Source of the DNA: Alphaproteobacteria bacterium
GTDB lineage: Bacteria; Pseudomonadota; Alphaproteobacteria; SP197
Length of the DNA stretch: 64,000 nucleotides
Reading direction: 5' to 3'
Assembly (NCBI GenBank): GCA_965228895.1
Contig: OZ245842.1
Location: forward strand, 1,760,001 to 1,824,000
In this document: positions 1 through 14,632 of the stretch, piece after piece
Layout: each line of letters starts with the position of its first letter
Numbering within the stretch: the first letter of the stretch is position 1
Program-made: the position numbers and the translations under genes
The notes under the pieces: generated by a model
Databases searched by the model: none
What the model saw: only the letters and a program-made list of their open reading frames with translations
What the model was told of the DNA's origin: nothing

Positions 1-1297
1 AGGGACGCATTTCCAACAGGTCGCCTTTGCGTTTACCGAGTTTCTCGACGACTGGACCTGTAAAGTCATCGTCAACGTCGATAACGGCTTCCTCGATCGG
101 TTCCATCAAGTCGCCGGTTCCCGGATCCTTGCGGTAGAGGACGCGGGGCCGGCCGATAGCGAGTTCGAAACCTTCCCGACGCATGGTCTCGATCAAGACA
201 CCGAGCTGCAGTTCGCCGCGCCCGGCGACCTCGAAGACCGTCTTGTCATCTGTCTGACGTACTTCGAGCGCGACGTTGCCTTCGGCTTCTCGCATCAGAC
301 GATCGTGGATCATGCGGCTGGTGACCTTGTCACCTTCCTTGCCGGCGAGCGGTGAATCGTTGATCGAGAATGTCATCGCGAGCGTCGGCGGGTCGATCGG
401 CTGAGCTTCGAAAGGTGTATCGACACTGGGGTCGCACAGCGTGTCGGCGACGCTGGCCTCGCCGAAACCGGCGAGCGCGACGATGTCGCCGGCTTCCGCC
501 TGATCGACGCCGACCCGCTCCAGACCGCGAAAGGCGAGGATCTTGCTGACCCGGCCTTGCTCGACCACCTTGCCGTCGCGCGACAATGCCTTGATCGAGG
601 CGTTGGCTTTAAGCGATCCCTGGGCGATACGCCCGGTGAGCAAGCGGCCCAGATAGGCGTCGGTCTCCAGGGTTGTCGCCAGCATGCGGAACGGTCCATC
701 CTGTTCGACGTCGGGTGCCGCGACATGTTCGACGATCAGGTCGAACAGGGGCGTCATGTCCTTGCGTTCGTCGCCTAGTTCGGCCACGGCCCAGCCGTGC
801 TTGGCCGAGGCATAAACGGAAGGGAAATCGAGTTGATCGTCGTTGGCGTCGAGGGCGGCAAACAGATCGAAGACCTCGTTCAGCACTTCCTGGGCCCGCT
901 CTTCGGGCTTGTCGACCTTGTTGATGACGACAATGGGTTTGAGACCCAGGCGCAATGCCTTGCCGACCACGAACTTGGTCTGCGGCATCGGGCCCTCGGC
1001 CGCATCGACCAGAACGCAAACGCCATCGACCATGCTGAGAATGCGCTCGACCTCGCCTCCGAAATCGGCATGGCCGGGCGTGTCGACGATGTTGATGCGT
1101 GTCGAGCCCCATTCGACGGACGTGCATTTGGCCAGGATCGTGATGCCGCGCTCACGTTCCAGGTCGTTGCTGTCCATCGCGCGTTCGGCCACCTGTTGGT
1201 TGGCGCGAAACGTGCCGCTTTGCTTCAAAAGCTCGTCCACCAGGGTCGTTTTGCCGTGGTCGACATGAGCGATGATGGCGATGTTCCTGAGGTCCAT
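1..1297 (-). CDS. typA: GTP-binding translational GTPase TypA/BipA (runs off the left edge)
   Basis: Manual translation from ATG at 1297: [21 protein letters not shown]...[11 protein letters not shown]...[14 protein letters not shown]...NKVD, the TypA G1-G4 motifs. Absent from the ORF track because there is no stop in the window. Confidence 0.96.
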
Positions 1298-3049: not shown

Positions 3050-4837
3050 ATGTCGTTTCTTGTTATCGCCGCCATATTCCTAGCCGCCGCCATTGTTGCC
3101 GTGCCGCTGTCGAAACGGGTGGGTTTCGGCTCGGTGCTCGGATACCTGGCCGCCGGCGTGGTGATCGGCCCCTCTGCCCTCGGTCTGGTCACCAATGTTG
3201 ACGACATCCTGCACTTTGCCGAGTTCGGTGTCGTCCTGCTTCTTTTTGTCATCGGCCTGGAACTGCAGCCCTCGCGCCTGATGACCATGCGCAAGGCCGT
3301 GTTCGGCATGGGTGGCGCCCAGGTTTTGGTGACCGCCATCTTGTTGGCGGCGGTGGCGTTCGCCATGGGCTTGACCGTGGAGAGCGCGATCGTTGTCGGT
3401 CTGGCGCTGTCGCTTTCGTCGACCGCTTTCGCGCTCCAGATCCTCGCGGAGAAAGGACAGTTGGCGAGCGCCCATGGCCGATCGTCGTTCGCCATCCTGC
3501 TGTTCCAGGATCTCGCGGTGATCCCGATCCTGGCGCTCCTGCCACTGCTGGCGCCGGGTACCGGCGTTGACGATGGCGAACCCATCTGGATTACGGTGCC
3601 GCGGGCCATTGCCGTCATTGCGGCGGTCATCATCGGCGGCAAGTATCTTCTGCGCTATGTGTTGAGAACCGTCGCCTGGACAAAGGTGAACGAGGTCTTC
3701 ACGGCGACCGCGCTGCTGACCGTGATCGGTGTTGCCCTGATCATGGACATGATCGGTCTGTCGATGGCGCTGGGCGCTTTCCTGGCCGGTGTCCTGCTCG
3801 CCGAGTCCGAGTTCCGCCACGAACTCGAGGCCGATATCGAACCCTTCAAGGGGTTGTTGCTGGGTTTGTTTTTTATCGCCGTCGGCATGTCGGTCAATCT
3901 GAACCTGGTGGTCGAGCAACCCGGCCTGATCGTGCTGCTCGTTGTCGGGCTGATGGTGATCAAGTCGATCGTGCTGATCGGGGTTGGCCTCACCATGAAA
4001 CGTTCGCTTTCGACCTCGTTGATGCTCGCCGTGACGCTCAGCCAGGGCGGCGAGTTCGCGTTTGTCATCCTGGCGGTCGCGATTGGCGCCAACATCCTCG
4101 ATCCGGCGATCGCCGAACTGCTGATTGTCGTGGTGACGGTTTCCATGGGCGTGACGACGCTGTTGTTTGTCGTCAGCGATCAGATCAAGGCGCGCAAGGG
4201 GGGCGCCAAACCGGACGACTACGACACCGACATGCCGGATGAAAACCAGGTCTTGATCGCCGGCTTCGGGCGTTTCGCGCAGATTGTCGCGCGCACGCTA
4301 ATGGGCAAAAGGATTGGATTCACCGCGCTCGACAACAGCCCGGATCAGGTCAACTTTGTCCGCCGTTTTGGCAACAAGGTCTATTACGGCGACGCGTCAC
4401 GGCTGGAGCTGCTGCGCGCTGCCGGCGCCGAGAACGCGAAGGTCTTCGTGCTCGCCATCGATGACGTCGAAGCGTCGCTCAGGACCGCCGAGGCGGTCAT
4501 TCGCCACTATCCGCATTTGAGAATCCTGGCGCGCGCCCATGATCGCCAGCACGCCTACCGGCTGATGGACCTCGGCATCGAGGATATCGTGCGCGACACC
4601 TTCTATTCCGGTCTGGAGATGGCGAATATGACGCTGCGAGGCCTGGGCCTGTCGAGTTCCGAAGCGCGGCGTGCTGTCGAGACATTCAGGGATCACGACG
4701 TCGAGCGGCTCTATGCCCACCACGACATCTACCGCGACGATGAAAAGATGGCGCAGGCGGCCCAAGATTGGGCCAAGGAGCTGGAAGAACTGTTCGATCA
4801 GGACGAGGCGGACCGCGAACGCCAGGCGGCGGACTAA
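3050..4837 (+). CDS. kefC: CPA2 family K+/H+ antiporter with C-terminal KTN/RCK domain (KefB/KefC-like)
   Basis: AEFGVVLLLFVIGLELQPSRL, ILLFQD, FRHELEADIEPFKGLLLGLFF, QGGEFAFV, GFGRF and YYGDASR motifs; ATG at 3050. Confidence 0.9.
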   Translation: MSFLVIAAIFLAAAIVAVPLSKRVGFGSVLGYLAAGVVIGPSALGLVTNVDDILHFAEFGVVLLLFVIGLELQPSRLMTMRKAVFGMGGAQVLVTAILLAAVAFAMGLTVESAIVVGLALSLSSTAFALQILAEKGQLASAHGRSSFAILLFQDLAVIPILALLPLLAPGTGVDDGEPIWITVPRAIAVIAAVIIGGKYLLRYVLRTVAWTKVNEVFTATALLTVIGVALIMDMIGLSMALGAFLAGVLLAESEFRHELEADIEPFKGLLLGLFFIAVGMSVNLNLVVEQPGLIVLLVVGLMVIKSIVLIGVGLTMKRSLSTSLMLAVTLSQGGEFAFVILAVAIGANILDPAIAELLIVVVTVSMGVTTLLFVVSDQIKARKGGAKPDDYDTDMPDENQVLIAGFGRFAQIVARTLMGKRIGFTALDNSPDQVNFVRRFGNKVYYGDASRLELLRAAGAENAKVFVLAIDDVEASLRTAEAVIRHYPHLRILARAHDRQHAYRLMDLGIEDIVRDTFYSGLEMANMTLRGLGLSSSEARRAVETFRDHDVERLYAHHDIYRDDEKMAQAAQDWAKELEELFDQDEADRERQAAD

Positions 4838-4843
4838 GCCCGG

Positions 4844-5671
4844 CTAACTGTTGCGATTGAGGATTGTGTCGAGAGCGGCGTCGGCATCCACGTCGAGCAG
4901 GCCAAGATTGATCGCGACCTCGCCGCCGCCGTCGACGTTGAGTTCCGTGCCGTTGATCCAGCCGGCGTCTTCCGACAGCAGGAAACAGATCGCCGGTGCG
5001 ATTTCGTCGGGGCGGCCGTCGCGGCCGCCGGCCTGCGCCTTCAATCGATCGAGGATGGCGTTGTCCATGGTGCCGTAGAAGTCATCGAGGATCGGTGTCT
5101 CGACGGCGCCCGGATTGACCGCGTTGACGCGCACGCCGAAGGGCCGCGCCATCATCGACGCGACCTGCGAATAGACGATGACCGCCTCTTTGGAGAAGTT
5201 GTAGGCATCGGGACCCGACATCGGGTGGTCCCGGACCCACGTCAGACCTTCGTCAAAACTCTGCGCCGCCATGAGGTCGCGCAGTGTCTCCAGATTGGCG
5301 CGCCAGCCTGTGCCGGCACACGACGCAACGTTGACGACGCTGCCGCCCGGTTCCAGCCGCGGCACCGTGATCTCTGTCAGGCGACGCAGGCCGAGCAGGT
5401 TGACGCGCATGACGGTCTCGCCGTCGGCCGAGCCCGGCACACCGGCCACGTTGGCAAGGCCGTGAACCGGTCCATCGATCAAATCGGCCGCGCGATCGAT
5501 CGAACCGGAATCGATGAGATCGCAGGCGACGAATGTCATGGCGGATGATTGCGGGTCGCGCCGGTCCATTGCGACGACCTCCGCACCACGTTCGATCAGG
5601 AGGTCTGCGGTCGCACGCCCGATGCCCGACGATGCGCCGGTCACCACAATACGTTTGCCGTTGAGGTTCAT
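4844..5671 (-). CDS. Short-chain dehydrogenase (coniferyl-alcohol/3-alpha-HSD-like)
   Basis: TGASSGIG, NVAGVPG, YNFSK and NPGAVETPIL motifs; 4-nt overlap with the P450 stop. Confidence 0.88.
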   Translation of the reverse strand: MNLNGKRIVVTGASSGIGRATADLLIERGAEVVAMDRRDPQSSAMTFVACDLIDSGSIDRAADLIDGPVHGLANVAGVPGSADGETVMRVNLLGLRRLTEITVPRLEPGGSVVNVASCAGTGWRANLETLRDLMAAQSFDEGLTWVRDHPMSGPDAYNFSKEAVIVYSQVASMMARPFGVRVNAVNPGAVETPILDDFYGTMDNAILDRLKAQAGGRDGRPDEIAPAICFLLSEDAGWINGTELNVDGGGEVAINLGLLDVDADAALDTILNRNS

Positions 5672-6912
5672 GACGCCAGCTTGGTCGGGCTGTAGGTGCA
5701 GGGCAGGGCGCGCACGCCGTTGATGAACATGCCGGTGATCGGACGTTTGCTGTCGAGGTCGACGTTCAGGTCGGGCATGGTCTCGAACAACAGCTTGAAG
5801 AAATGATACATCTCGCGGCGCGCCAGATGCATGCCCAGACAGTGGTGCACGCCACCGCCGCCATAGCCGACGTGATCGTTGGGGTTGCGCCGGATGTCGA
5901 ACCGGTCGGGATCGTCAAACACGTCCTCGTCACGGTTGGCGGCGTTGTACCAGATGACAACCTTTTGGCCGGCTTCGATGGCTTGGCCGCCGATCTCGGT
6001 AGTGACCGCGACGGTACGGCCAAAGTGCACGACCGGGCTGGCGTAGCGCACGATTTCTTCAAGCGCGGAGGCCACCAGACCCTCGTAGTCCTGGCGCCAG
6101 TCGCGCCACTGATCGGGATGAGCGGCCAGAAACGTGATGCCCTGCGCAATCGAGCTTGCGGTTGTCTCGATTCCGGCGGTGATCAGAAGCTGAAAGTAAA
6201 TGCCGATATCGAAGTCGGTCAGTTTCTCACCATCAAGATCGGCGGCGACCAGGACGCTGATCAGGTCGTTACCGGGTGCCTTGCGCCGTGCTCTCGCCAA
6301 CTCTTCGCCATAGGCGTTCAAATCGAGAAATGCCTGATAGGAGTTGCCGAAGTCGCCGATCTCCGGGTCGCCGTGGCCAAGCGCGGTGATCGTCAGGTGT
6401 TGCAGGTGCGCGCGGTCTGCCTCCGGTACGTCCAGCATGTCACAGATCACGCCCATCGGCATTTGGTTGGCGATGTCGGCGGCGAAGTCGCAGGCGCCTT
6501 GTTCCGAGATCGAGCCGATCACCTCGCGTGCCCGCGATGCCATGCTGCCTTCGATCTCCTGCAGCATGCGCGGGGTGAAGATCTTCGCGACGATACGACG
6601 CAGTTTTGTGTGCAACGGGGGATCGCGGTTCAACATGCCGCCGACGATGTAGGCCTCGTCGTCGGACTCCGTAAACATGCCGGTGCCGTGACCGGAAACG
6701 AAACGCTTGGTATCCCGGCTGACGTCACGCACATCCTTGTGCCGTGTCAGCGACCAAAACCCTTCGCCGGTCGGCTTGCCATCGCTGTCGAACGCGGCCT
6801 GCCAGGCGACCGGGCGCTCGCGGCGAAACCGGGTAAACCAGTGGTCGCGATCGTCGCGTTGCCAGAATGCCATGTCGGCGAGATGGATATCGTCGAGAGA
6901 AAGCTGATCCAT
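5668..6912 (-). CDS. Cytochrome P450 (CYP124/125/142-like)
   Basis: DPPLHTKLR, I-helix AGIETT, EEIVR, ANRDE and heme motif GYGGGGVHHCLG; start MDQLSL at 6912. Confidence 0.93.
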   Translation of the reverse strand: MDQLSLDDIHLADMAFWQRDDRDHWFTRFRRERPVAWQAAFDSDGKPTGEGFWSLTRHKDVRDVSRDTKRFVSGHGTGMFTESDDEAYIVGGMLNRDPPLHTKLRRIVAKIFTPRMLQEIEGSMASRAREVIGSISEQGACDFAADIANQMPMGVICDMLDVPEADRAHLQHLTITALGHGDPEIGDFGNSYQAFLDLNAYGEELARARRKAPGNDLISVLVAADLDGEKLTDFDIGIYFQLLITAGIETTASSIAQGITFLAAHPDQWRDWRQDYEGLVASALEEIVRYASPVVHFGRTVAVTTEIGGQAIEAGQKVVIWYNAANRDEDVFDDPDRFDIRRNPNDHVGYGGGGVHHCLGMHLARREMYHFFKLLFETMPDLNVDLDSKRPITGMFINGVRALPCTYSPTKLAS

Positions 6913-6979
6913 AGCGGTTCGCTCCAGAGCCGTGCGACACAGCAAGTTTGGGGTGGTGTTACCGCCGGGTCAACGATTA

Positions 6980-6995
6980 TCTATCGATCGATAGA
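6980..6995. promoter_or_regulatory. Perfect 16-bp palindrome, probable TetR operator
   Basis: TCTATCGATCGATAGA equals its own reverse complement and lies in the AT-rich spacer between the divergent P450 and tetR genes. Confidence 0.75.
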
Positions 6996-7042
6996 AATTT
7001 ACTCTGGTATGGCAGCGGTTGCGGCTGTTAGGGTCGCTGACG

Positions 7043-7729
7043 ATGGATGAACCGAGCGATACCGCCAGCAGACGGACACGCGGCCGGCCGCGCGCCGAGC
7101 CGAAGGCCGGCGACACGCCGACCGAGGAGCAGATCCTGGAAGCGGCCGGTGAAGTCTTTGCCGAGTTCGGTTTCGCCGGCGCCTCTACCCGAGAAATCGC
7201 GCGCCGGGCAGGTCTGCGGCAGCCGTCGCTCTACCACTACTTTCCCAACAAAGCGGCGATGCTGACCGCCCTGATCGAGCAGGCGGGCGAGGGGTCGCTC
7301 GCCATCTTCCGAAAGATCGATGCTCTGCAGGCACCGGCGGCGGTCAAGCTTTACCGTGCGACCTATCTGGAGTCGCGCATGCTGGCTGGATGGCCGGACT
7401 ACCTGAAAGTCGTGTGCCAGCTTCCCGAGCTTAGGCAGCCGCGTCACGTCCACTTCATTGAGATTCGCGACCGCATCATCGCTTGGTACCAGAAGACCAT
7501 CGCTGACGGCGTTGCCGCCAGCGAGTTCCGCACGGTCGATCCGCTGTTTGTCGGCTGGCTGATCAACGGCGCCAACGAGGCGATCTTCGATCAGGCGCCG
7601 ATCACGCCGCGCCTGGAGCCCGACGCCCACGCACGGGCCGTCGCAAGTTTCGTGCTGTGCGCGGTGATCGGCGATCCCCGCCAGTTCGATTCAATCGTGG
7701 TTGCCGCAGACCTGATGGGCGCCGACTAG
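7043..7729 (+). CDS. TetR/AcrR family transcriptional regulator
   Basis: ILEAAGEVFAEFGFAGASTREIARRAGLRQPSLYHYFPNK helix-turn-helix; ATG at 7043. Confidence 0.93.
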   Translation: MDEPSDTASRRTRGRPRAEPKAGDTPTEEQILEAAGEVFAEFGFAGASTREIARRAGLRQPSLYHYFPNKAAMLTALIEQAGEGSLAIFRKIDALQAPAAVKLYRATYLESRMLAGWPDYLKVVCQLPELRQPRHVHFIEIRDRIIAWYQKTIADGVAASEFRTVDPLFVGWLINGANEAIFDQAPITPRLEPDAHARAVASFVLCAVIGDPRQFDSIVVAADLMGAD

Positions 7730-7738
7730 AAGTACCGC

Positions 7739-8071
7739 TCAGTAGCGGTGCTCGTCGCTGTCCTTGGCCATGATTTCGCGCACCTTGCGCTCTTCCCAGT
7801 CTTTCGACGTCCAGGGCAGGAAGCTGAAGGTGCTGGAGGCGTGGAAGGCGATCGCGATGCCCCAGCCCAGCAACACCCAATAGAACCAGACGCCGCCGCC
7901 GCTGAAGATGTCGATGAGAAACAGAATCGCGTTGACGACGAGGTAAACGGTCAGGTGGTGATAGAACCCCTTGATCTCTTCGACGCGTTTGCGCGCCCGT
8001 TTCTCGGCTTTGCGCAGCTGTTCGTCGGCTTCGCTTTCCGTTACGGCCGTTGCTGACGTCTCGTCGCTCAT
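7739..8071 (-). CDS. 2TM domain-containing membrane protein
   Basis: ARKRVEEIKGFYHHLTVYLVVN...WFYWVLLGWGIAIAFH...WEERKVREIM, the 2TM family pattern; GAGGGGA RBS upstream. Confidence 0.85.
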   Translation of the reverse strand: MSDETSATAVTESEADEQLRKAEKRARKRVEEIKGFYHHLTVYLVVNAILFLIDIFSGGGVWFYWVLLGWGIAIAFHASSTFSFLPWTSKDWEERKVREIMAKDSDEHRY

Positions 8072-8224
8072 AGACCTTCCCCTCGCTCTCCAATCTACCT
8101 AGCCGGCCGCCGGATCCTGCGCCGTGCCCGGGTCTGCAGACTCATGTGGTGACGACGGAAGCTCTGCCAAGGCCGGCCATCAATCCACAAAACTGTCGCC
8201 CGTCCTGTCGCCACAACGTTCCGG

Positions 8225-9076
8225 TCAAAGGTTCTTGAACTGCTGGTAGCCCGCAGGCAGGGGGATGCCGCGTTCCCGGGCTTCCTCATCCATTTCGTTG
8301 ACCAGGACGATCAACGCCTCTTCATAGGTGTCGACGATGTCGTCTCTGGCGATAGCGACGCGTTCGACACCCAGGCCACCTTCGACGGGGCCGCCGCCTT
8401 CCGGCGGTATCGAAACCTCGCCCAGTTCCAGATACCCGACGAGCGGGTAGTGGTGTTCCGATTCCAGCGGTGTGCCGGGCAGCGGATAGTGGAACGACAC
8501 CGTCGGCATGCCGGGTGCATGGGGATGCTCCGGCGGACGGAAATAGCCGGAGCCATCGCCTGACGCGACGGCTTCCTCCCATGGCCGGATCACCACCTGA
8601 TGGGGCCCGATGTCGAAGTCGTCGAGGTAGAGGCGCATGGGCTCGAACCGGTCGGTCGAGACCAGCACCAGCCGGTGCGGGTTGAGGCCGGATCCGTTGA
8701 CCAGGAAATCGAGCACCTGATGGAACACCTCGCCGGGATAGGCCGGGCGGGCGTTGTGGTAGCCGAGAATATGGAACCTGGGCAGCACGCCGACCTCGCC
8801 CCGGCGCGGAATGTCCTCAAGCCGTGCACACCCCTGCAGGCGGATGGTCTTGCCGCCGACGGCCGGTGACGGCAACTCGTCATAGCGGATGCCACCGTTG
8901 AAGTCGTAATCGGCGATCAGACCATGGGGCGGCAGCAACTCATAGCCCTTGCCCTCGAAATAGGTCACCGGCTCCGCCGCCGCGAAGATCTCTGCGGCAT
9001 GCGCGCTCTTGGTCAAGAGATACGGCGCGGCGACCGCAGCTGAGGCTTTAAGAAGGTCCCGTCGGCTTTGCGCCAT
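8225..9076 (-). CDS. Tat-signal protein with an alanyl-tRNA synthetase catalytic-domain-like fold
   Basis: MAQSRRDLLK...SAHA signal; colinear AlaRS-like motifs YFEGKGY, QGCAR, RFHILG, YLELGEV, EGGLGVERVA; GGGGA RBS before ATG 9076. Confidence 0.75.
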   Translation of the reverse strand: MAQSRRDLLKASAAVAAPYLLTKSAHAAEIFAAAEPVTYFEGKGYELLPPHGLIADYDFNGGIRYDELPSPAVGGKTIRLQGCARLEDIPRRGEVGVLPRFHILGYHNARPAYPGEVFHQVLDFLVNGSGLNPHRLVLVSTDRFEPMRLYLDDFDIGPHQVVIRPWEEAVASGDGSGYFRPPEHPHAPGMPTVSFHYPLPGTPLESEHHYPLVGYLELGEVSIPPEGGGPVEGGLGVERVAIARDDIVDTYEEALIVLVNEMDEEARERGIPLPAGYQQFKNL

Positions 9077-9368
9077 GGCGTTATCCCCGTCTGTTGCGTG
9101 AGGCCGTGCGTTCATTCGAAGACATAGCGCTCGACCTCACGTTGTCAACGCTGGCCCACGTGCTTCTCCAGCGTCTTTATGTGGCCTTGGAAGACACATG
9201 ATAGTAGCTTATCTTTCTTTTGAGAAAATCACGATAAGTCATTGTAGAAAAACAATAAAGTAGCCTTTCCTAAAGTGGGTTCTTCAGGGGGTCGCCATTG
9301 GGATTCGTCCCGGCGCAGCATGTTTGTTCGGTTGCGCAGGGCGCACCGAGGAAAACGAGGAGAAAGCC

Positions 9369-9710
9369 GTGCCCATTTCCCGCGATCTCGTCCTTTCGAA
9401 AGCAAGGCAGATCTTTCCGACTCACGACGAAACCGCGGTTTTGACGATGCTGCAGGCTTATGGGGCAGAACCCCATGAGGCCGATGATGAGAGGGTCTAC
9501 CTGGCGATCCTCAAGCTCTGCGACGAGGCAGGGGCGTCCGATCCTTCGCCCTATGTGACGCGCGCAAAGCGGGACCCCCGCGATGTGATCGCCTGGGCCG
9601 AGTATCCCAACCAGATGGCCTTTGGACCAACCGACGACCCGGTGAAGGCTGAAGAACTCAGGAAGAGCGACGACGACCAGTACCGTGCATGGCTGGCCAA
9701 GACACGCTGA
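9369..9710 (+). CDS. Conserved hypothetical protein
   Basis: GTG at 9369 after a GAGGAG RBS; ERVYLAILKL...AKRDPRDVIAWAEYP; GC-rich third positions typical of coding sequence. Confidence 0.7.
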   Translation: MPISRDLVLSKARQIFPTHDETAVLTMLQAYGAEPHEADDERVYLAILKLCDEAGASDPSPYVTRAKRDPRDVIAWAEYPNQMAFGPTDDPVKAEELRKSDDDQYRAWLAKTR

Positions 9711-9748: not shown

Positions 9749-9823
9749 TGGTGGGCGCGGCTGGGATTGAACCAGCGACCCCCGCCGTGTGAAGGCGATG
9801 CTCTCCCGCTGAGCTACGCGCCC
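9749..9823 (-). tRNA. tRNA-Val (anticodon CAC)
   Basis: GGGCGCGTAGCTCAGCGGGAGAGCATCGCCTTCACACGGCGGGGGTCGCTGGTTCAATCCCAGCCGCGCCCACCA folds as a cloverleaf with T-loop GTTCAATC and encoded CCA. Confidence 0.97.
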
Positions 9824-9979: not shown

Positions 9980-11662
9980 ATGGCGACGATGACCGGTGCG
10001 CGGTTCATGGCCGAGTTCCTGGAAAGGAGCGGCGTGACCCACGTTTTCTGGGTGCCCGCGGTCCTGGGCGGCTTGCTGCGTGAGCTCGAAACCTCCAACC
10101 GCGTCTCGCGCATCCTGGCCCACAGCGAAAAATCCGCCGTCTACATGGCCGACGGCTACGCGCGCGCCAGCGGCCGGCCGGGCGTGTGTTTCGCCCAGAA
10201 GATCGGCGCCGCCAACCTTGCCGCCGGTCTTAAGGATCCCTATCTCGCCTGCACGCCCATCGTGGCGCTCGCCGGCGGCGCGCGCGCGGAATACGAGAAC
10301 CGCCACGTCTATCAGCAGATCGACGACGCCACGGCTTTCCTGCCGGTGACCAAATCACAGGCCCATGTCGCGGTGGTCGAAGCGCTGCCCGAGGTGCTGC
10401 GCCAGGCGTTTCGCTCGGCGACCACGGGCACGCCGGGCCCGTGTCTCGTCGAAATGGCCGGCCACTTCGCCGAGGTCGAGATGGACACGGCGGCGCTGGA
10501 TGTGGTGGTCGAGGAGCGGTTCCAGCAGTTGCCGCCGTTCCGGCCCGTCGCCGAGCAGGGCGCCATGGCCGAGGCAGTCGATCGGCTCATCAAGGCAGAA
10601 CGGCCGGTCATCGTCGCCGGTGGCGGCGTCCGCGCGTCCGGCGCGGGCGTTGCACTGCTTGCCTTGGCCGAGCGGCTCAATATCCCGGTCGCGACGGCGA
10701 TGAACGCGAAGGACCAGATCCCCGGCGATCACCCGCTCAACGTCGGCGTACCCGGCACCTATTCGCGCCGCTCAGCGAACGAAACCTTGCTGGAAGCCGA
10801 TCTCGTGTTTTTTGTCGGCAGCCATACAGGCAGTCAGGTAACCGCCCACTGGCATCTGCCGCCGATGGGAACGCCGGTCATACAGCTCGACATCAACGGC
10901 GAGGAGCTTGGCCGTCACTATCCCAACGCGATCGCGCTGCAGGGTGATGCGCGCGCCAGTCTGGAGGTCATGCTGGATCTGGCGGGCGATGCCGATGGCA
11001 GCCACCATCAGCCCTGGGTCGACCGGGCAGCGGGTTTCGTTGCGGCGTGGCGCGACAGCATCGCCGCGCACATGGCATCCGACGCGACGCCCATCCGACC
11101 CGAGCGCCTGTGTGCCGAGCTCACCGCCTGGCTACCGGAGAACGCCATTCTGGTCTCCGACACCGGCCATTCGGGCATGTGGACCGCCGGCCATATCGAT
11201 CTGAACCACGCCGGCCAGTCCTATCTGCGCGCCGCCGGCTCGCTCGGCTGGAGTTTCCCCGCGGGCATCGGCGCGCAGCTTGCCTGCCCCGACCGTCCGG
11301 TGGTTGTTTTCACCGGCGACGGCGGCTTCTGGTATCACCTGACCGAGCTGGAGACGGCGGTGCGTTGGGACGTGCCGGTGATCACCGTGGTCAACAACAA
11401 CAGCATGCTGAGCCAGGGCGTCGACGAGGAAATGGCCGACCGTGGCGGCAAGCTCGAAGGCCGTTGGGGCGATGCGTGGGAGTTTACGCCGTCCAATTTT
11501 GCCGAGATCGCCAGGTCCATGGGCGCCGAAGGCATCCGGGTCGAGCAGCCCGGTGAAATACGTGCCGCGCTCGACGAGGCGCTCGCCATGCGCCGCCCCG
11601 TTGTCGTTGACGTGGTCGGCGATCCCTGGGCCCAGGCCGCCCACGCCTTTGTCGGTGAGTAA
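9980..11662 (+). CDS. Thiamine pyrophosphate-dependent enzyme (acetolactate-synthase-large-subunit-like)
   Basis: HSEKSAVYMADGYAR, GTPGPCLVE and ThDP motif GDGGFWY...NN. No ilvN/ilvH neighbour, so probably catabolic. Confidence 0.9.
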   Translation: MATMTGARFMAEFLERSGVTHVFWVPAVLGGLLRELETSNRVSRILAHSEKSAVYMADGYARASGRPGVCFAQKIGAANLAAGLKDPYLACTPIVALAGGARAEYENRHVYQQIDDATAFLPVTKSQAHVAVVEALPEVLRQAFRSATTGTPGPCLVEMAGHFAEVEMDTAALDVVVEERFQQLPPFRPVAEQGAMAEAVDRLIKAERPVIVAGGGVRASGAGVALLALAERLNIPVATAMNAKDQIPGDHPLNVGVPGTYSRRSANETLLEADLVFFVGSHTGSQVTAHWHLPPMGTPVIQLDINGEELGRHYPNAIALQGDARASLEVMLDLAGDADGSHHQPWVDRAAGFVAAWRDSIAAHMASDATPIRPERLCAELTAWLPENAILVSDTGHSGMWTAGHIDLNHAGQSYLRAAGSLGWSFPAGIGAQLACPDRPVVVFTGDGGFWYHLTELETAVRWDVPVITVVNNNSMLSQGVDEEMADRGGKLEGRWGDAWEFTPSNFAEIARSMGAEGIRVEQPGEIRAALDEALAMRRPVVVDVVGDPWAQAAHAFVGE

Positions 11663-11682: not shown

Positions 11683-12330
11683 ATGCATTTTGATTGTCGC
11701 GCCATCGAACCGCGAGAGTGTTACAAGCTGTTGATCTCAACGGTCGTGCCGCGGCCGATCGCGTTCGTGACGACGGTGCGTGATGACGGACATGTCAACG
11801 CGGCGCCGTTCAGCTTCTTCAACGCTGTCGGTTTCGACCCGCCGGTTGTGGTCCTCGGCCTCGAGGCGCGTCCCGATGGCCGCTTGAAGGACACCGCGGC
11901 GAACATTCAGGTGAGCGGCGAATTCGTCGTCAACATCGTCGACGAAGCGTTGGCCCATCAGATGAACATCTCCGCCATCGACTTCGAGCCGGATGTCTCA
12001 GAACCGATGCAGGCCGGCCTCGACATGGTCGACAGCATCGGTATCCGTCCGCCGCGCATTGCGACAAGTCCGGTCAGTATGGAATGCGAAAAGCTCGTGA
12101 CCCTCGAGCTCAAGAACGCGCGCCACGTCGTCCTGGGCGAGGTGCTGCACTTCCACATCCGCGATGACATCGTCCTCGATTCCGAGCGGTTCCACATCGA
12201 TATCGACCGCCTGGCCGCGATCGGCCGCATGAACGCCAGCAGCTATACGCGAACCAGTGACCACTTCGACCTGCCACGTATTCATGTCGACCACTGGGAT
12301 ACCGACACGGCCTCGCGGCGCGAGAGATGA
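11683..12330 (+). CDS. Flavin reductase family protein
   Basis: YKLLISTVVPRPIAFVTT, NAAPFSFFN, KDTAANI and GEFVVNIV motifs. Confidence 0.9.
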   Translation: MHFDCRAIEPRECYKLLISTVVPRPIAFVTTVRDDGHVNAAPFSFFNAVGFDPPVVVLGLEARPDGRLKDTAANIQVSGEFVVNIVDEALAHQMNISAIDFEPDVSEPMQAGLDMVDSIGIRPPRIATSPVSMECEKLVTLELKNARHVVLGEVLHFHIRDDIVLDSERFHIDIDRLAAIGRMNASSYTRTSDHFDLPRIHVDHWDTDTASRRER

Positions 12331-12331
12331 T

Positions 12332-14632
12332 TCAGCGCGCGCCTTCCGCCAGCGGCATGTCGTGGGCTTCGACCGGCGGCAGGTTGCCGTCATAGCGCTC
12401 GACCTCGACCAGTGCCGTGTTGCAGGCGGGGCCTTGCGATAGCGACGAACAACCGGCGTCATAGGTCAAGACGTTGGGATTGCCGTGACGTTCCAGAGCG
12501 TCCGGATTGCCGGGATCGTCGGCGTCGAACCAGGAACCCGTCGACATGACGACGACGCCCGGCATGACATTCTCGGTCAATTGCGCGCCGCCCAGGCAAC
12601 GTCCCCGCCCGTTGAAGACGTGCACGATGTCGCCATCGCTGATGCCTCTGAGCGCGGCGTCGTCGGGATGTATCAGCAGGGGTTCGCGGTCACGGATCTT
12701 GTGGCTGGCGCTGTGTTCGCCGCTGTCGAGTTGGCTGTGCAGTTTGTCGCGCGGCTGATCGGACAGCAGATGAAGAGGATGGCTGAGCGCTGCCTCGCCG
12801 CCGAGCCACTCACGGGGTTCGTACCATGTGGGATGACGTCCGCAATCGGGGTAACCGAAGCTGCCGATTGTCTCGCTGACCAGTTCGACCATGCCCGATG
12901 GGGTCGTCAGCGGGTTGGCGGCGGGGTCTTCGCGTAGGTCGGCGAGCGCATGATTACCCGTCGTCAGCGGTCCGACGCGCATCCAGCCACCAGCCCAGAA
13001 GCTGTCGAAGTCGGGTATCGCGACGCCGGCCTTCGTCGCGCTCTCGCGGGAGAGGTCGTAGAGATGGCGCACCCAGGCCATCTCGTCGCGGCCCTCGGTG
13101 AAAGCGTCGCCAAAGCCCATGCGCTCGGAGAGGTCGCGGAAAATCTCATGGTCCGAACGCGCTTCGCCAAAGGGCTCGCTCGCCTTGTGCATGGGTGCGG
13201 CAAAGCCGCCGTGCGCGCTGCCGGAAAAGTCGTTGCGCTCCAGTGTCGTCGTTGCCGGCAGCACGATATCGGCAAAGCGCGCCGTCGGCTGAAACCATGC
13301 ATCCTGGACGATGACCGTCTTGGGTTGACGGAACGCATGGGCAAGGCGGTGCAGGTCCTGATGGTGGTGGAATGGGTTGCCGCCGGCCCAATAGACAAGG
13401 CCGATCTCCGGGAACGTGATGTTCATACCGTTATAGGGGATCGTCGCGCCGGGATTGAGTAGCATGTCGGCGATCCGCGCGACCGGGATGAACCGGTCGA
13501 CGGGATTGCGGCCCTGCGGAAAGGCCGCCCAGCGGAACGGCAGGCGACCGGCGCCATGGTCGTTGAACGTGCCCAGGCCAAAGGCGATGCCGCCGCCGGG
13601 CAGGCCGAGTTGGCCCAGAAGCGCGGCAAGCGCGATCGCCATCCAGAACGGCTGCTCGCCATGGTCGGCCCGTTGCATTGCCCAAGTGATGGAGATCAGC
13701 GTGCGCCGGCCTTCCATTTCGCGCGCCAGCGCGATGATGGCGCTGGCCGAAACGCCGGTGATCGTGGCGGCCCAATCAGGATCCTTAGGCTGGCCGTCGC
13801 TCTCGCCCAGGACGTAGGCGATGAGCTCGTCGCCGCCGACACAGCATCGGTCGAGATAGGCTTTGTCATGCTTGTCGTCGGTGATCAGCACGTAGGCGAG
13901 CGCCAGCATCAACGCGACATCGGTGTTGGGACGGGGCGCCAACCAATGGGCGCCGAACGTCTCCTCGTCGTGGGACAACACCGGGCCGATCGAGATCGCC
14001 TGCATGCCGCCTTCGATGCAAGCGGCAAGCCCGGCCTTGTCGACGTGGGGGCCGGTGCCGCCGGGATCGACCATGGCGTTCTTGAACGGCAGACCGCCAA
14101 AGGCGACCAGCAGCTCCGTATGCTCTTTCATGGTCGGCCAGTCATAGCCGGTCGGCAGCATGCCGCCGCCCAGAACATGCGATACGATGACCTCGGCCGC
14201 CGCCGAGCTATAGGTGTTGACGTGGCGCACGAACCCGCCGGCGAGGTTCATGAACCGCTTGAGCTGGCTTTGCGCATGGTTGAAGCGCCCGGCGCTCGCC
14301 CAACCATAGGAACCGGCAAAGATGCCTTCGTTGCCCAGTTCGGCCTTGGTGCGGTTGATCGCGTCGACGACAAGACCGAGCGCGCGATCCCAACTGACGG
14401 GAACATAGGCGTCGCGGCCACGTCCCGAACCGTCGCACGCGCCCTCACTCTCCAGATAGCTGCTGCGCACCAGGGGCGTCGCGATCCGCGCGCGCTCGCC
14501 CAACATGTCTTTGAGCGTGTCGCCGATCAGCGGCGGGTCCGGATCGTCGGCGAGCGGCCGGATGACCGGCCCGTCCTCGCCGCTCTCGTGCTCGTAGTAA
14601 CCCCAGTGGGTCGCCGTGGTGCGTGTTGTCAT
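12332..14632 (-). CDS. Cytoplasmic S-/N-oxide reductase molybdoenzyme (BisC/TorZ-like)
   Basis: THWG, GSYGWASAGRFNHA, NTYSSAA (Ser Mo ligand), QRADHGEQ, GGNPFHHHQD and LHSQ; no Tat signal. Confidence 0.9.
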   Translation of the reverse strand: MTTRTTATHWGYYEHESGEDGPVIRPLADDPDPPLIGDTLKDMLGERARIATPLVRSSYLESEGACDGSGRGRDAYVPVSWDRALGLVVDAINRTKAELGNEGIFAGSYGWASAGRFNHAQSQLKRFMNLAGGFVRHVNTYSSAAAEVIVSHVLGGGMLPTGYDWPTMKEHTELLVAFGGLPFKNAMVDPGGTGPHVDKAGLAACIEGGMQAISIGPVLSHDEETFGAHWLAPRPNTDVALMLALAYVLITDDKHDKAYLDRCCVGGDELIAYVLGESDGQPKDPDWAATITGVSASAIIALAREMEGRRTLISITWAMQRADHGEQPFWMAIALAALLGQLGLPGGGIAFGLGTFNDHGAGRLPFRWAAFPQGRNPVDRFIPVARIADMLLNPGATIPYNGMNITFPEIGLVYWAGGNPFHHHQDLHRLAHAFRQPKTVIVQDAWFQPTARFADIVLPATTTLERNDFSGSAHGGFAAPMHKASEPFGEARSDHEIFRDLSERMGFGDAFTEGRDEMAWVRHLYDLSRESATKAGVAIPDFDSFWAGGWMRVGPLTTGNHALADLREDPAANPLTTPSGMVELVSETIGSFGYPDCGRHPTWYEPREWLGGEAALSHPLHLLSDQPRDKLHSQLDSGEHSASHKIRDREPLLIHPDDAALRGISDGDIVHVFNGRGRCLGGAQLTENVMPGVVVMSTGSWFDADDPGNPDALERHGNPNVLTYDAGCSSLSQGPACNTALVEVERYDGNLPPVEAHDMPLAEGAR

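Follow-up and report, generated by a model that had tools for sequence, protein, structure and literature searches.

What role could an adenylate-forming fold have where ATP is not supplied? This question is posed by a gene in a 64,000-nucleotide stretch of an alphaproteobacterial genome (assembly GCA_965228895.1, contig OZ245842.1, positions 1,760,001 to 1,824,000; the whole stretch is called the window here). The gene occupies positions 8225 to 9076 of the window on the minus strand, with an ATG start at 9076-9074 and 283 codons followed by a TGA stop (8225-8227). We report that the mature domain of its product (residues 29-283; 8228-8992, minus strand) is a catalytic core of the kind found in alanyl-tRNA synthetase (AlaRS), a class II aminoacyl-tRNA synthetase (aaRS), as judged from an AlphaFold (AF2) model, structure comparison with VIA-align and profile alignment with hhalign, and that a predicted twin-arginine translocation (Tat) signal precedes it. 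In this identification of protein, fold and export signal we have high confidence. That the protein would in addition act as a Tat-exported, tRNA-independent enzyme, binding or forming adenylates on a substrate of the cell envelope, is our leading proposal, to which we give an even chance, both export and chemistry being predicted from sequence.

Fold and active site of the mature domain

The AlphaFold model was built on an alignment of 66 full-length family members that are 25-85% identical to the query (alignment A2), and reached a predicted local distance difference test score (pLDDT) of 92.7 and a predicted template modelling score of 0.86, with low confidence only in the signal peptide. 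A Foldseek search of the PDB with this model placed bacterial and human AlaRS catalytic fragments at ranks 1-17 (E 1.6e-11 to 5e-9, TMq 0.54-0.60), followed by other class II synthetases at E values of at least 1e-6, and such fragments still came first (E 4.9e-10) with the first model, which had been built from 8 sequences and had a pLDDT of 65.7. VIA-align, in a comparison independent of Foldseek that covered 48,161 PDB representatives, gave as its best match the bacterial AlaRS 9jc7_A (Z 18.5, 240 aligned residues, root-mean-square deviation 3.5, model residues 30-283 against chain residues 2-305). Archaeal AlaRS scored Z 13.8 and 13.4, and the plateau of non-AlaRS class II proteins began with HisZ (12.8) and plastid GlyRS (12.4), then HisRS and LysRS, with the cores of GenX (11.5), AsnA (11.3), the GlyRS alpha subunit GlyQ (7qcf_A, 10.3) and the amino acid:carrier-protein ligase Bll0957 (10.0) lower down. 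The original prediction, made from the DNA letters, had expected the AlaRS catalytic domain as the top fold match; both Foldseek searches and VIA-align returned it there, so that a match to the class II fold, the absence of which would have counted against that prediction, was found at the Z and E values given above.

At the level of plain sequence the relationship is faint. Identity between the target and AlaRS is only 13-18% in structural alignments, phmmer with the single protein gave nothing in the PDB but an irrelevant match (E 1.3), and a hidden Markov model (HMM) of the family had AlaRS on top but only at E 0.039-0.077; a plain sequence search alone would therefore have missed the homology. 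Moreover, the Pfam model of the AlaRS catalytic domain, PF01411 (tRNA-synt_2c), did not match the target even at E<=10 and matched 0/66 members at E<=0.01, and among all Pfam and NCBIfam models none matched the target beyond signal-peptide models. The ESM Atlas returned two clusters named 'hypothetical protein' first (0.97 and 0.96, with TAT_signal on 12% of one of them) and a tRNA-synt_2c cluster third (0.80), which we treat as a lead only.

Profile alignment brought the relationship out clearly. Alignment A4 was made of the N-termini of 13 AlaRS proteins, encoded in the window's genome and in further genomes of its phylum. When alignment A2 was compared with it by hhalign, the two aligned over 230 columns without rearrangement at 97.6% probability and E 4.3e-12. 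The family profile pairs with AlaRS in a colinear series that includes the block YFEGKGYELLPPHGLI with FFHSKGHQIVASSSLV, FNGG with TNAG, QGCAR with QRCVR, RFHILG with FFEMLG and PTVSFHY with PCTEIFY and, in the C-terminal half, YLELGEV with YIEIWNV, EGGLGVER with DTGMGLER and DTYE with SNYD; each of the blocks that had been aligned by eye in the original prediction was thereby reproduced. The model and VIA-align further show a single domain consisting of the catalytic core only, with no tRNA-binding module, and the protein of 283 residues, aligned to AlaRS residues 2-305 only, does stop short of the domains for tRNA recognition and editing and of C-Ala, as had been proposed. Fused or longer family members were not found, which is weak evidence, and the isoelectric point of the mature domain does not separate the target from AlaRS N-termini. 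Elsewhere, the window's genome encodes a normal AlaRS of full length as well as an AlaX-like protein, and on account of the former we regard the target as a diverged additional paralogue rather than as the housekeeping enzyme. The AlaX-like gene (G000:C1:2473752-2473994) is short and stand-alone and lies in an open frame of 251 residues, and its match to the tRNA-synt_2c model is confined to the model's C-terminal part (positions 475-552). The best reading of these data is that the bacterial AlaRS aminoacylation domain is either the ancestor or the sister of the target. A chance resemblance, or the decaying fragment of a duplicated alaS, would agree with the missing tRNA-synt_2c match and the low identity, yet we consider it scarcely credible: it is refuted by the confidence of the AlphaFold model (pLDDT 92.7), the hhalign E value and the VIA-align Z score, and it sits poorly with 108 family clusters that have conserved motifs and intact frames. 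A decaying remnant of an alaS duplicate is ruled out in particular by the full-length AlaRS elsewhere, together with those 108 clusters at 50% identity.

The active site tells what this paralogue has kept and what it has rebuilt. Residues were mapped through hhalign, AlaRS positions being numbered after its first row (E. coli-type), with frequencies taken from alignment A2 (n=66); all features of the gene lie on the minus strand. Motif 2 (Q81 to G105; 8762-8836) retains R85, equivalent to AlaRS R69, and F101, equivalent to F90 (each 65/66), and its loop is 7 residues shorter, the GGKHND segment being gone and an invariant D88 (66/66) standing in its place. Farther along come a strand (8417-8428) with E217, the counterpart of AlaRS E209 (65/66), and E220, which replaces N212 (64/66), and then motif 3 (G233 to A243; 8348-8380), where G236 (66/66), E238 (60/66) and R239 (66/66) correspond to AlaRS G239, E241 and R242. 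From textbook knowledge of class II synthetases, we take R69, F90, E209 and R242 to have roles in ATP binding. The motif-2 arginine, the stacking phenylalanine and the GxER of motif 3, all described as kept in the original prediction, are indeed present in 60-66 of the 66 members. Further near-invariant positions are N60 (65/66), G62 (64/66), D66 (62/66), Q81 (65/66), L98 (66/66), R164 (62/66), G175 (63/66), S176 (62/66), G177 (66/66) and P274 (63/66). AlaRS equivalences are also retained at N60 (N40), G62 (G42), Y65 (F46), Q81 (Q65), C83 (C67; 42/66), F179 (F169) and Y197 (Y186).

The substrate side of the pocket differs. According to a review, the residues of the E. coli enzyme that bind alanine or lactate are M43, R69, W170, N212, D235 and G237 (PMC12467997). 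Three of these, W170, N212 and D235, are lost in the family: W170 becomes R180 in the target, in a variable column (A in 23 and R in 18 of the 66, among others), N212 becomes E220, and D235 becomes E232 in the target. The motif-3 change from D to E named in the original prediction thus holds for this protein and not for the family, in which the column is variable (G15, E11, A11, S8, V6 and others of 66). M43 is replaced by I, L or V, G237 by G, A or S, R69 is kept, and K47 of AlaRS is D66 in the family. New invariants have appeared at the same time, namely Asp66, Asp88, Arg164 and a family-specific loop, G173-D-G-S-G177 (8546-8560), where AlaRS has the loop leading into W170. Here the earlier pairing of NFW with GYF was off by one residue, since hhalign pairs N168-F169-W170 with Y178-F179-R180. 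As read from these alignments, the pattern is that of an intact nucleotide or adenylate half-site, in which the residues for Mg-ATP and adenylate are near-invariant, joined to a rebuilt substrate half-site, without tRNA, editing or C-Ala modules.

These residues bear on whether the protein is an enzyme at all. It might instead be an exported pseudo-enzyme, its class II pocket only binding a ligand in the periplasm, such as ATP, AMP, Ap4A or an antibiotic that mimics an aminoacyl-adenylate, in the role of a sensor, a decoy or a protein that scavenges or binds the ligand. Some class II paralogues are regulatory and non-catalytic, HisZ is the best non-AlaRS structural match (Z 12.8), and the AlaRS amino-acid pocket of W170, N212 and D235 is not retained. 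However, near-invariant arginines, a stacking phenylalanine and acidic residues at 25-45% identity exceed what binding usually needs, and we take the near-invariance of the catalytic arginines and acidic residues to argue for catalysis rather than binding alone. In addition, the family invariants D66, D88, R164, GDGSG and E220 resemble a rebuilt substrate site and not decay, and a decoy for mimics of Ala-AMP in particular fits poorly with the lost D235 and W170 equivalents. We therefore regard a pseudo-enzyme as doubtful, with further points in its favour considered below.

Export signal and distribution of the family

The protein begins with MAQSRRDLLKASAAVAAPYLLTKSAHA, after which the predicted cleavage site is followed by AEIF. 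All three parts of a Tat signal can be seen in this segment (residues 1-28; 8993-9076, minus strand): a motif of the S/T-R-R-x-F-L-K type within the opening MAQSRRDLLK (SRRDLLK, with the twin-arginine codons CGA CGG of R5 and R6 at 9059-9064), a mildly to moderately hydrophobic h-region (ASAAVAAPYLL) and an AxA site (AHA/AE). The Pfam TAT_signal model PF10518 scored the target at 21.7 bits against a cut-off of 22.7 (E 1.8e-4) and TIGR01409 at 14.4 bits against 16.7; with both scores just under the cut-offs, the single sequence is suggestive only and conservation carries the weight. The choice of start supports the reading. Although the longest frame extends to 9115 (8225-9115, 296 residues), 7/7 close homologues begin with MA(Q/R/H/S)SRR, which matches the start at 9076, and a Shine-Dalgarno-like GGGGA run lies at 9084-9088, 7 nt upstream of it. 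The next methionine of the protein is M147, and a downstream alternative start is absent.

Across the family the signal is strongly conserved. In alignment A2, R5 is kept in 64/66 and R6 in 62/66 members. A script that anchored on the FNGG motif located it in 81/115 family proteins, of which the 8 with fewer than 45 residues before FNGG either are fragments or lack a signal; of the 73 with at least 45 residues there, 69 have the twin arginine, at a median position of 5 and followed by a hydrophobic stretch with a median best 12-residue Kyte-Doolittle score of 1.6. The 4/73 proteins that lack it comprise one with RS, one of Sec-like appearance and two with possibly mis-called starts. Some members add a lipobox: a regular expression for a lipobox-like cysteine hit 10 family proteins, about 7 of which look genuine by eye (LPAC, LGAC, AGAC, LAAC, LSAC, LSGC and APAC), and in several, such as those with LPAC, LAAC, LSAC or LSGC, it accompanies RR. 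In a Pfam scan of the 66 members at E<=0.01, TAT_signal (PF10518) matched 16/66 and no other family matched, and TatC is encoded in the window's genome (239.9 bits). The Tat-type signal named in the original prediction is thus borne out, both as a three-part sequence that can be read directly and by its conservation, and the twin arginine is conserved together with motifs 2 and 3 across the homologues, as expected there; homologues generally carry the signal at the start, though a few signal-less or Sec-type members exist.

Those exceptions are informative. Two clusters, P0066 (253 residues, 7 members) and P0107 (249 residues, 4 members), consistently lack the signal, and together with two Sec-like members they retain the same active-site residues. 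The chemistry of the family may accordingly work in the cytoplasm too, which would fit an ATP-dependent ancestor and would equally fit a ligand-binding role. In a quick maximum-likelihood tree rooted by AlaRS, in which many forks are weak, the 4 non-Tat rows form two pairs nested in Tat-bearing clades and not at the base, an arrangement suggesting that the Tat signal is ancestral and was lost or replaced in them. The Tat HMM scores just under the cut-offs, and the relatives that keep the active site but lack the signal, could also be taken to mean that the target is a cytoplasmic protein whose RR segment does not work or lies upstream of the true start, and that it is an ordinary aaRS-like ligase, independent of tRNA, of the AsnA, EpmA or amino acid:carrier-protein ligase type. 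We judge this very improbable, because RR, h-region and AxA site or lipobox are conserved although the signal sequences diverge, because the next methionine is M147 and no alternative start lies downstream, and because the non-Tat members are nested and not basal.

The family itself has gone without a name. A word-indexed search returned 7 relatives only, at 43-84% identity and called 'hypothetical' or 'twin-arginine translocation signal domain-containing', and an exhaustive search of 1.84 billion cluster representatives returned 108 proteins at E<=1e-3 (clusters at 50% identity), 84 of them at E<=1e-10 and 30 at E<=1e-30, nearly all 260-300 residues long. In an even sample of 301 genomes of its class, with only 8 candidates scored per genome, the gene is present in 2, the window's own included, and 0/2 genomes of the same taxonomic family carry it. 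Searching with the 8-sequence alignment gave 32 loci among species-representative genomes, and homologues lie in a further 10 metagenome loci. Hosts of the 32 loci are mostly alphaproteobacterial metagenome-assembled genomes (MAGs; Hoeflea, Rhizobiaceae, Hyphomicrobiales, Bauldia, Roseibium, Sneathiella), with Haliea, Shewanella and a Desulfobacteraceae MAG beyond this main group. A plasmid search and a PADLOC scan gave no match to the target. In two MAG loci, L034 (about 5970-6870) and L035 (about 5875-6740), the homologue is divided between two frames that overlap; a frameshift, decay to a pseudogene or faulty assembly could account for this. The family is rare, patchy and unannotated beyond signal-peptide models, and it can be defined from alignment A2.

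Genomic surroundings and a zinc lead

Upstream of the gene, a sigma-70-like promoter match (TTCTCA-17-TATCAT; 9198-9226, minus strand) lies in an AT-rich spacer; it is a consensus match only, with 1 found against 0.4 expected in shuffles. GC content around the gene is without anomaly except for this AT-richer spacer (9200-9599, GC 0.555). A divergent open reading frame (ORF) of 128 residues follows at 9324-9710 (plus strand), with no Pfam or PADLOC match, and beyond it, some 670 bp from the gene, lies a tRNA-Val gene (anticodon CAC) at 9749-9823 (minus strand). A 2TM-domain protein (7739-8071, minus strand, 110 residues; PF13239, 97 bits) is encoded 153 bp downstream of the gene in the same orientation. 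This gene order is common only to locus L004, whose target is 84% identical and which also has an ORF in the equivalent divergent position (126-518, minus strand); the 2TM-domain protein, paired with the gene in that locus only, is thus not a family-wide partner. Farther out, a TetR regulator (7019-7729, plus strand) is divergent from a cytochrome P450 (5668-6945, minus strand) and a short-chain dehydrogenase (4844-5671, minus strand). This group (4844-7729) has the look of a small catabolic or oxidative cluster without relation to our finding, and its TetR-P450 part is syntenic in L004. On the other side lie a thiamine pyrophosphate-dependent enzyme (9980-11662, plus strand), a flavin reductase-like protein (11683-12330, plus strand) and a molybdopterin oxidoreductase of 766 residues (12332-14632, minus strand) whose N-terminus is without an RR signal.

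For a view across the family, ORFs of the 32 genome loci and the window were clustered, Pfam matches were tallied over 124 neighbouring ORFs and 30 neighbours were scanned singly. Across these 33 loci no neighbour was family-wide, and recurrent ones proved clade-specific: znuCB-zur, a thiolase and a CoA-transferase recur in 8 syntenic loci, and a PF00135 carboxylesterase lies directly downstream, at a distance of about 31 bp, in 5 loci whose targets are 82-100% identical to one another and whose organisms are near-identical (L009, at 6778-8490, with equivalents in L023, L060, L061 and L062; 570-590 residues, type-B, with a signal-like N-terminus). In L014 a PF03583 secretory lipase takes the downstream place of the carboxylesterase. 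AcmF, an AlaRS-like enzyme to which we return below, is likewise paired with an alpha/beta-hydrolase, AcmE, in the ascamycin genes (PMC12945691). A Cys-rich-repeat protein stands directly upstream in about 4 loci, and other immediate neighbours include a secretory lipase, DoxX, an AOC-like barrel, DUF4440, DUF2541 and DUF4136. Several of these neighbours are envelope or secreted proteins by family name, consistent with a putative envelope role.

The zinc genes raise a different possibility, namely that the target is a Zur-regulated periplasmic component of the response to zinc starvation, which might aid ZnuBC or stand in for another enzyme so as to spare zinc. In the 8 loci (L024-L028, L030, L032 and L033) the gene is divergent from ZnuC, ZnuB and Zur-named genes, the classical position of znuA, although the best NCBIfam scores of these genes all lie below the equivalog thresholds (ZnuC 279.7 against 306 bits, ZnuB 274.7 against 284, Zur 91.2 against 167). 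The spacer holds a palindromic GTTAY-N3-RTAAC box of the same architecture as the box before the znuA of the window's genome, which is preceded by TGTTATGATATAACA. A 13-mer scan found this box in 8/31 upstream regions, exactly the znuCB-zur-linked ones, against a mean of 0.6 and a maximum of 3 in shuffles. However, the 8 loci share their flanking synteny (thiolase, CoA-transferase) and so represent one evolutionary event, and the box adjoins the znuC start (about 30-45 bp away, against about 140 bp or more from the homologue) and may thus serve znuC only. The other 23/31 upstream regions, including that of the window, are without the box, and a genome-wide scan for the znuA box with 2 mismatches allowed gave 24 matches, none near the window gene. 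A conserved Cys/His constellation is absent as well (C83 42/66, H184 45/66), and in 4/4 genomes checked a ZnuA-family gene lies elsewhere, without an adjacent ABC-3 permease match; on this ground we rejected the narrower idea that the target replaces ZnuA as the binding protein. We consider a zinc function improbable and treat zinc as a lead that would be specific to one clade and not a function of the family. The znuC-znuB-zur-like operon without adjacent znuA in Hoeflea/Rhizobiaceae-type loci (about 3600-5900 in each) is an observation of its own, as are two further, near-perfect Zur-box-like palindromes in the window's genome, with 1 mismatch each (G000:C1:2860512 and 3024201).

Proposed function and comparison with known systems

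How might such a protein work? We propose that it folds in the cytoplasm and that Tat would then export it, already folded, either into the periplasm or onto the inner membrane's outer face, in some relatives to a lipid anchor. There it would bind an adenine nucleotide and, most likely, form an adenylate without tRNA on a substrate other than alanine, to be passed to an acceptor in the envelope. The periplasm contains no tRNA and has no known steady supply of ATP; since neither is to be expected outside the cytoplasm, the target probably does something new. Two answers to the ATP problem can be imagined: the protein might leave the cytoplasm through Tat with ATP or an acyl-adenylate already bound, or it might use extracytoplasmic ATP. 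As Tat transports folded proteins, ligand-bound ones included, we prefer, speculatively, pre-charging before export. The mechanism of an adenylate-forming enzyme is one that we put forward tentatively; the full picture of periplasmic, sometimes lipid-anchored AlaRS-core ligases that would be charged in the cytoplasm and exported folded and loaded through Tat seems to us unlikely.

Several points weigh against our leading proposal. The lack of a known steady ATP supply in the periplasm is a difficulty in itself and, together with the lack of tRNA there, speaks for the pseudo-enzyme. So does the lack of any linked acceptor or carrier gene, as the 42 loci compared yielded neither such a gene nor a conserved operon partner. 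An enzyme loaded beforehand could complete a single turnover only, and since proteins without cofactors travel by Tat as well, targeting alone is no argument for pre-loading. Both single-sequence Tat HMM scores fall just below the curated cut-offs, the signal-less and Sec-like relatives with the same active site indicate that the chemistry is not tied to the periplasm, and export, nucleotide binding and catalysis are all predicted.

The interest of the family lies in its combination of features. Paralogues of aaRS have been a source of new chemistry (AsnA, EpmA, amino acid:carrier-protein ligases, AcmF, AlaRS-dependent lactylation), with the described cases being cytoplasmic; here a complete ATP/adenylate site is strongly conserved while nearly every member bears a Tat signal. 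Any answer would be new, be it a pre-loaded exported enzyme, the use of extracytoplasmic ATP or a binder of nucleotides or antibiotic mimics. The first two, if true, would bear on energy-requiring ligations in the bacterial envelope, and pre-loaded ligases in particular would be an unrecognised route by which adenylate-level chemical energy is brought into the envelope, for example for the acylation of an envelope molecule or protein.

Among known proteins the closest is the bacterial AlaRS aminoacylation domain (PF01411; PDB 9jc7, 3hxu, 1riq), which has the same fold, with colinear motif-2 QxCxR...F, E209 strand and motif-3 GxGxER, and leads the structural matches by about 5 Z units. Unlike AlaRS, the target has no PF01411 match, a shorter motif-2 loop, a replaced alanine pocket and a Tat signal, and lacks the tRNA-recognition domain, the editing domain and C-Ala; family HMM, alanine pocket and domain architecture each place it outside AlaRS proper. 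GlyQ is likewise an AlaRS-related short core of similar size, but it is a much weaker match (Z 10.3 against 18.5) and acts with GlyS and tRNA in the cytoplasm. AsnA, EpmA/GenX, HisZ and the amino acid:carrier-protein ligases (Bll0957) are, like the target, stand-alone class II cores that work or regulate without tRNA (Z 10.0-12.8). They derive, however, from Asp/Asn-, Lys-, His- and Ser-type synthetases and not from AlaRS, the described ones are cytoplasmic, all score below AlaRS, and the target has no Pfam or NCBIfam match to their families.

The only described stand-alone AlaRS-like enzyme that our literature search found is AcmF, a truncated AlaRS-like aminoacyl transferase of ascamycin biosynthesis that works outside translation (PMC12945691). 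AcmF carries the substitutions N219Q and D232E at the equivalents of N212 and D235 (PMC12945691), and the target, like AcmF with its D232E, has Glu at the D235 position. The review describes AcmF as a cytoplasmic protein that keeps the tRNA-recognition domain, uses Ala-tRNA and is without most ATP-binding residues (PMC12945691); our family is the reverse, with no tRNA domain, a predicted independence of tRNA, ATP-site residues kept and an export signal. An exported or Tat-linked aaRS-like protein was not found in the full-text literature (supplements and subscription-journal papers lay outside this scope), and in two reviews of aaRS paralogues the terms 'signal peptide', 'periplasm' and 'secreted' never occur (PMC5388404, PMC9437257). 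Within these sources the earlier statement that no described exported AlaRS-like protein is known still stands. A functional analogy is offered by Lig E, which comprises minimal ATP-dependent DNA ligases with an N-terminal periplasmic leader (PMC4220977; bioRxiv 10.64898/2026.03.22.713542), and is thus an adenylate-forming enzyme targeted to the periplasm despite the same ATP problem (PMC4220977). The analogy is functional only, as Lig E has an unrelated nucleotidyltransferase fold, a DNA substrate and a general periplasmic leader rather than a Tat signal (PMC4220977). Lig E nevertheless shows that adenylate-forming enzymes targeted to the periplasm exist, and so provides a precedent. The target is best described as a new variant, with predicted export, within the known class of aaRS-like paralogues.

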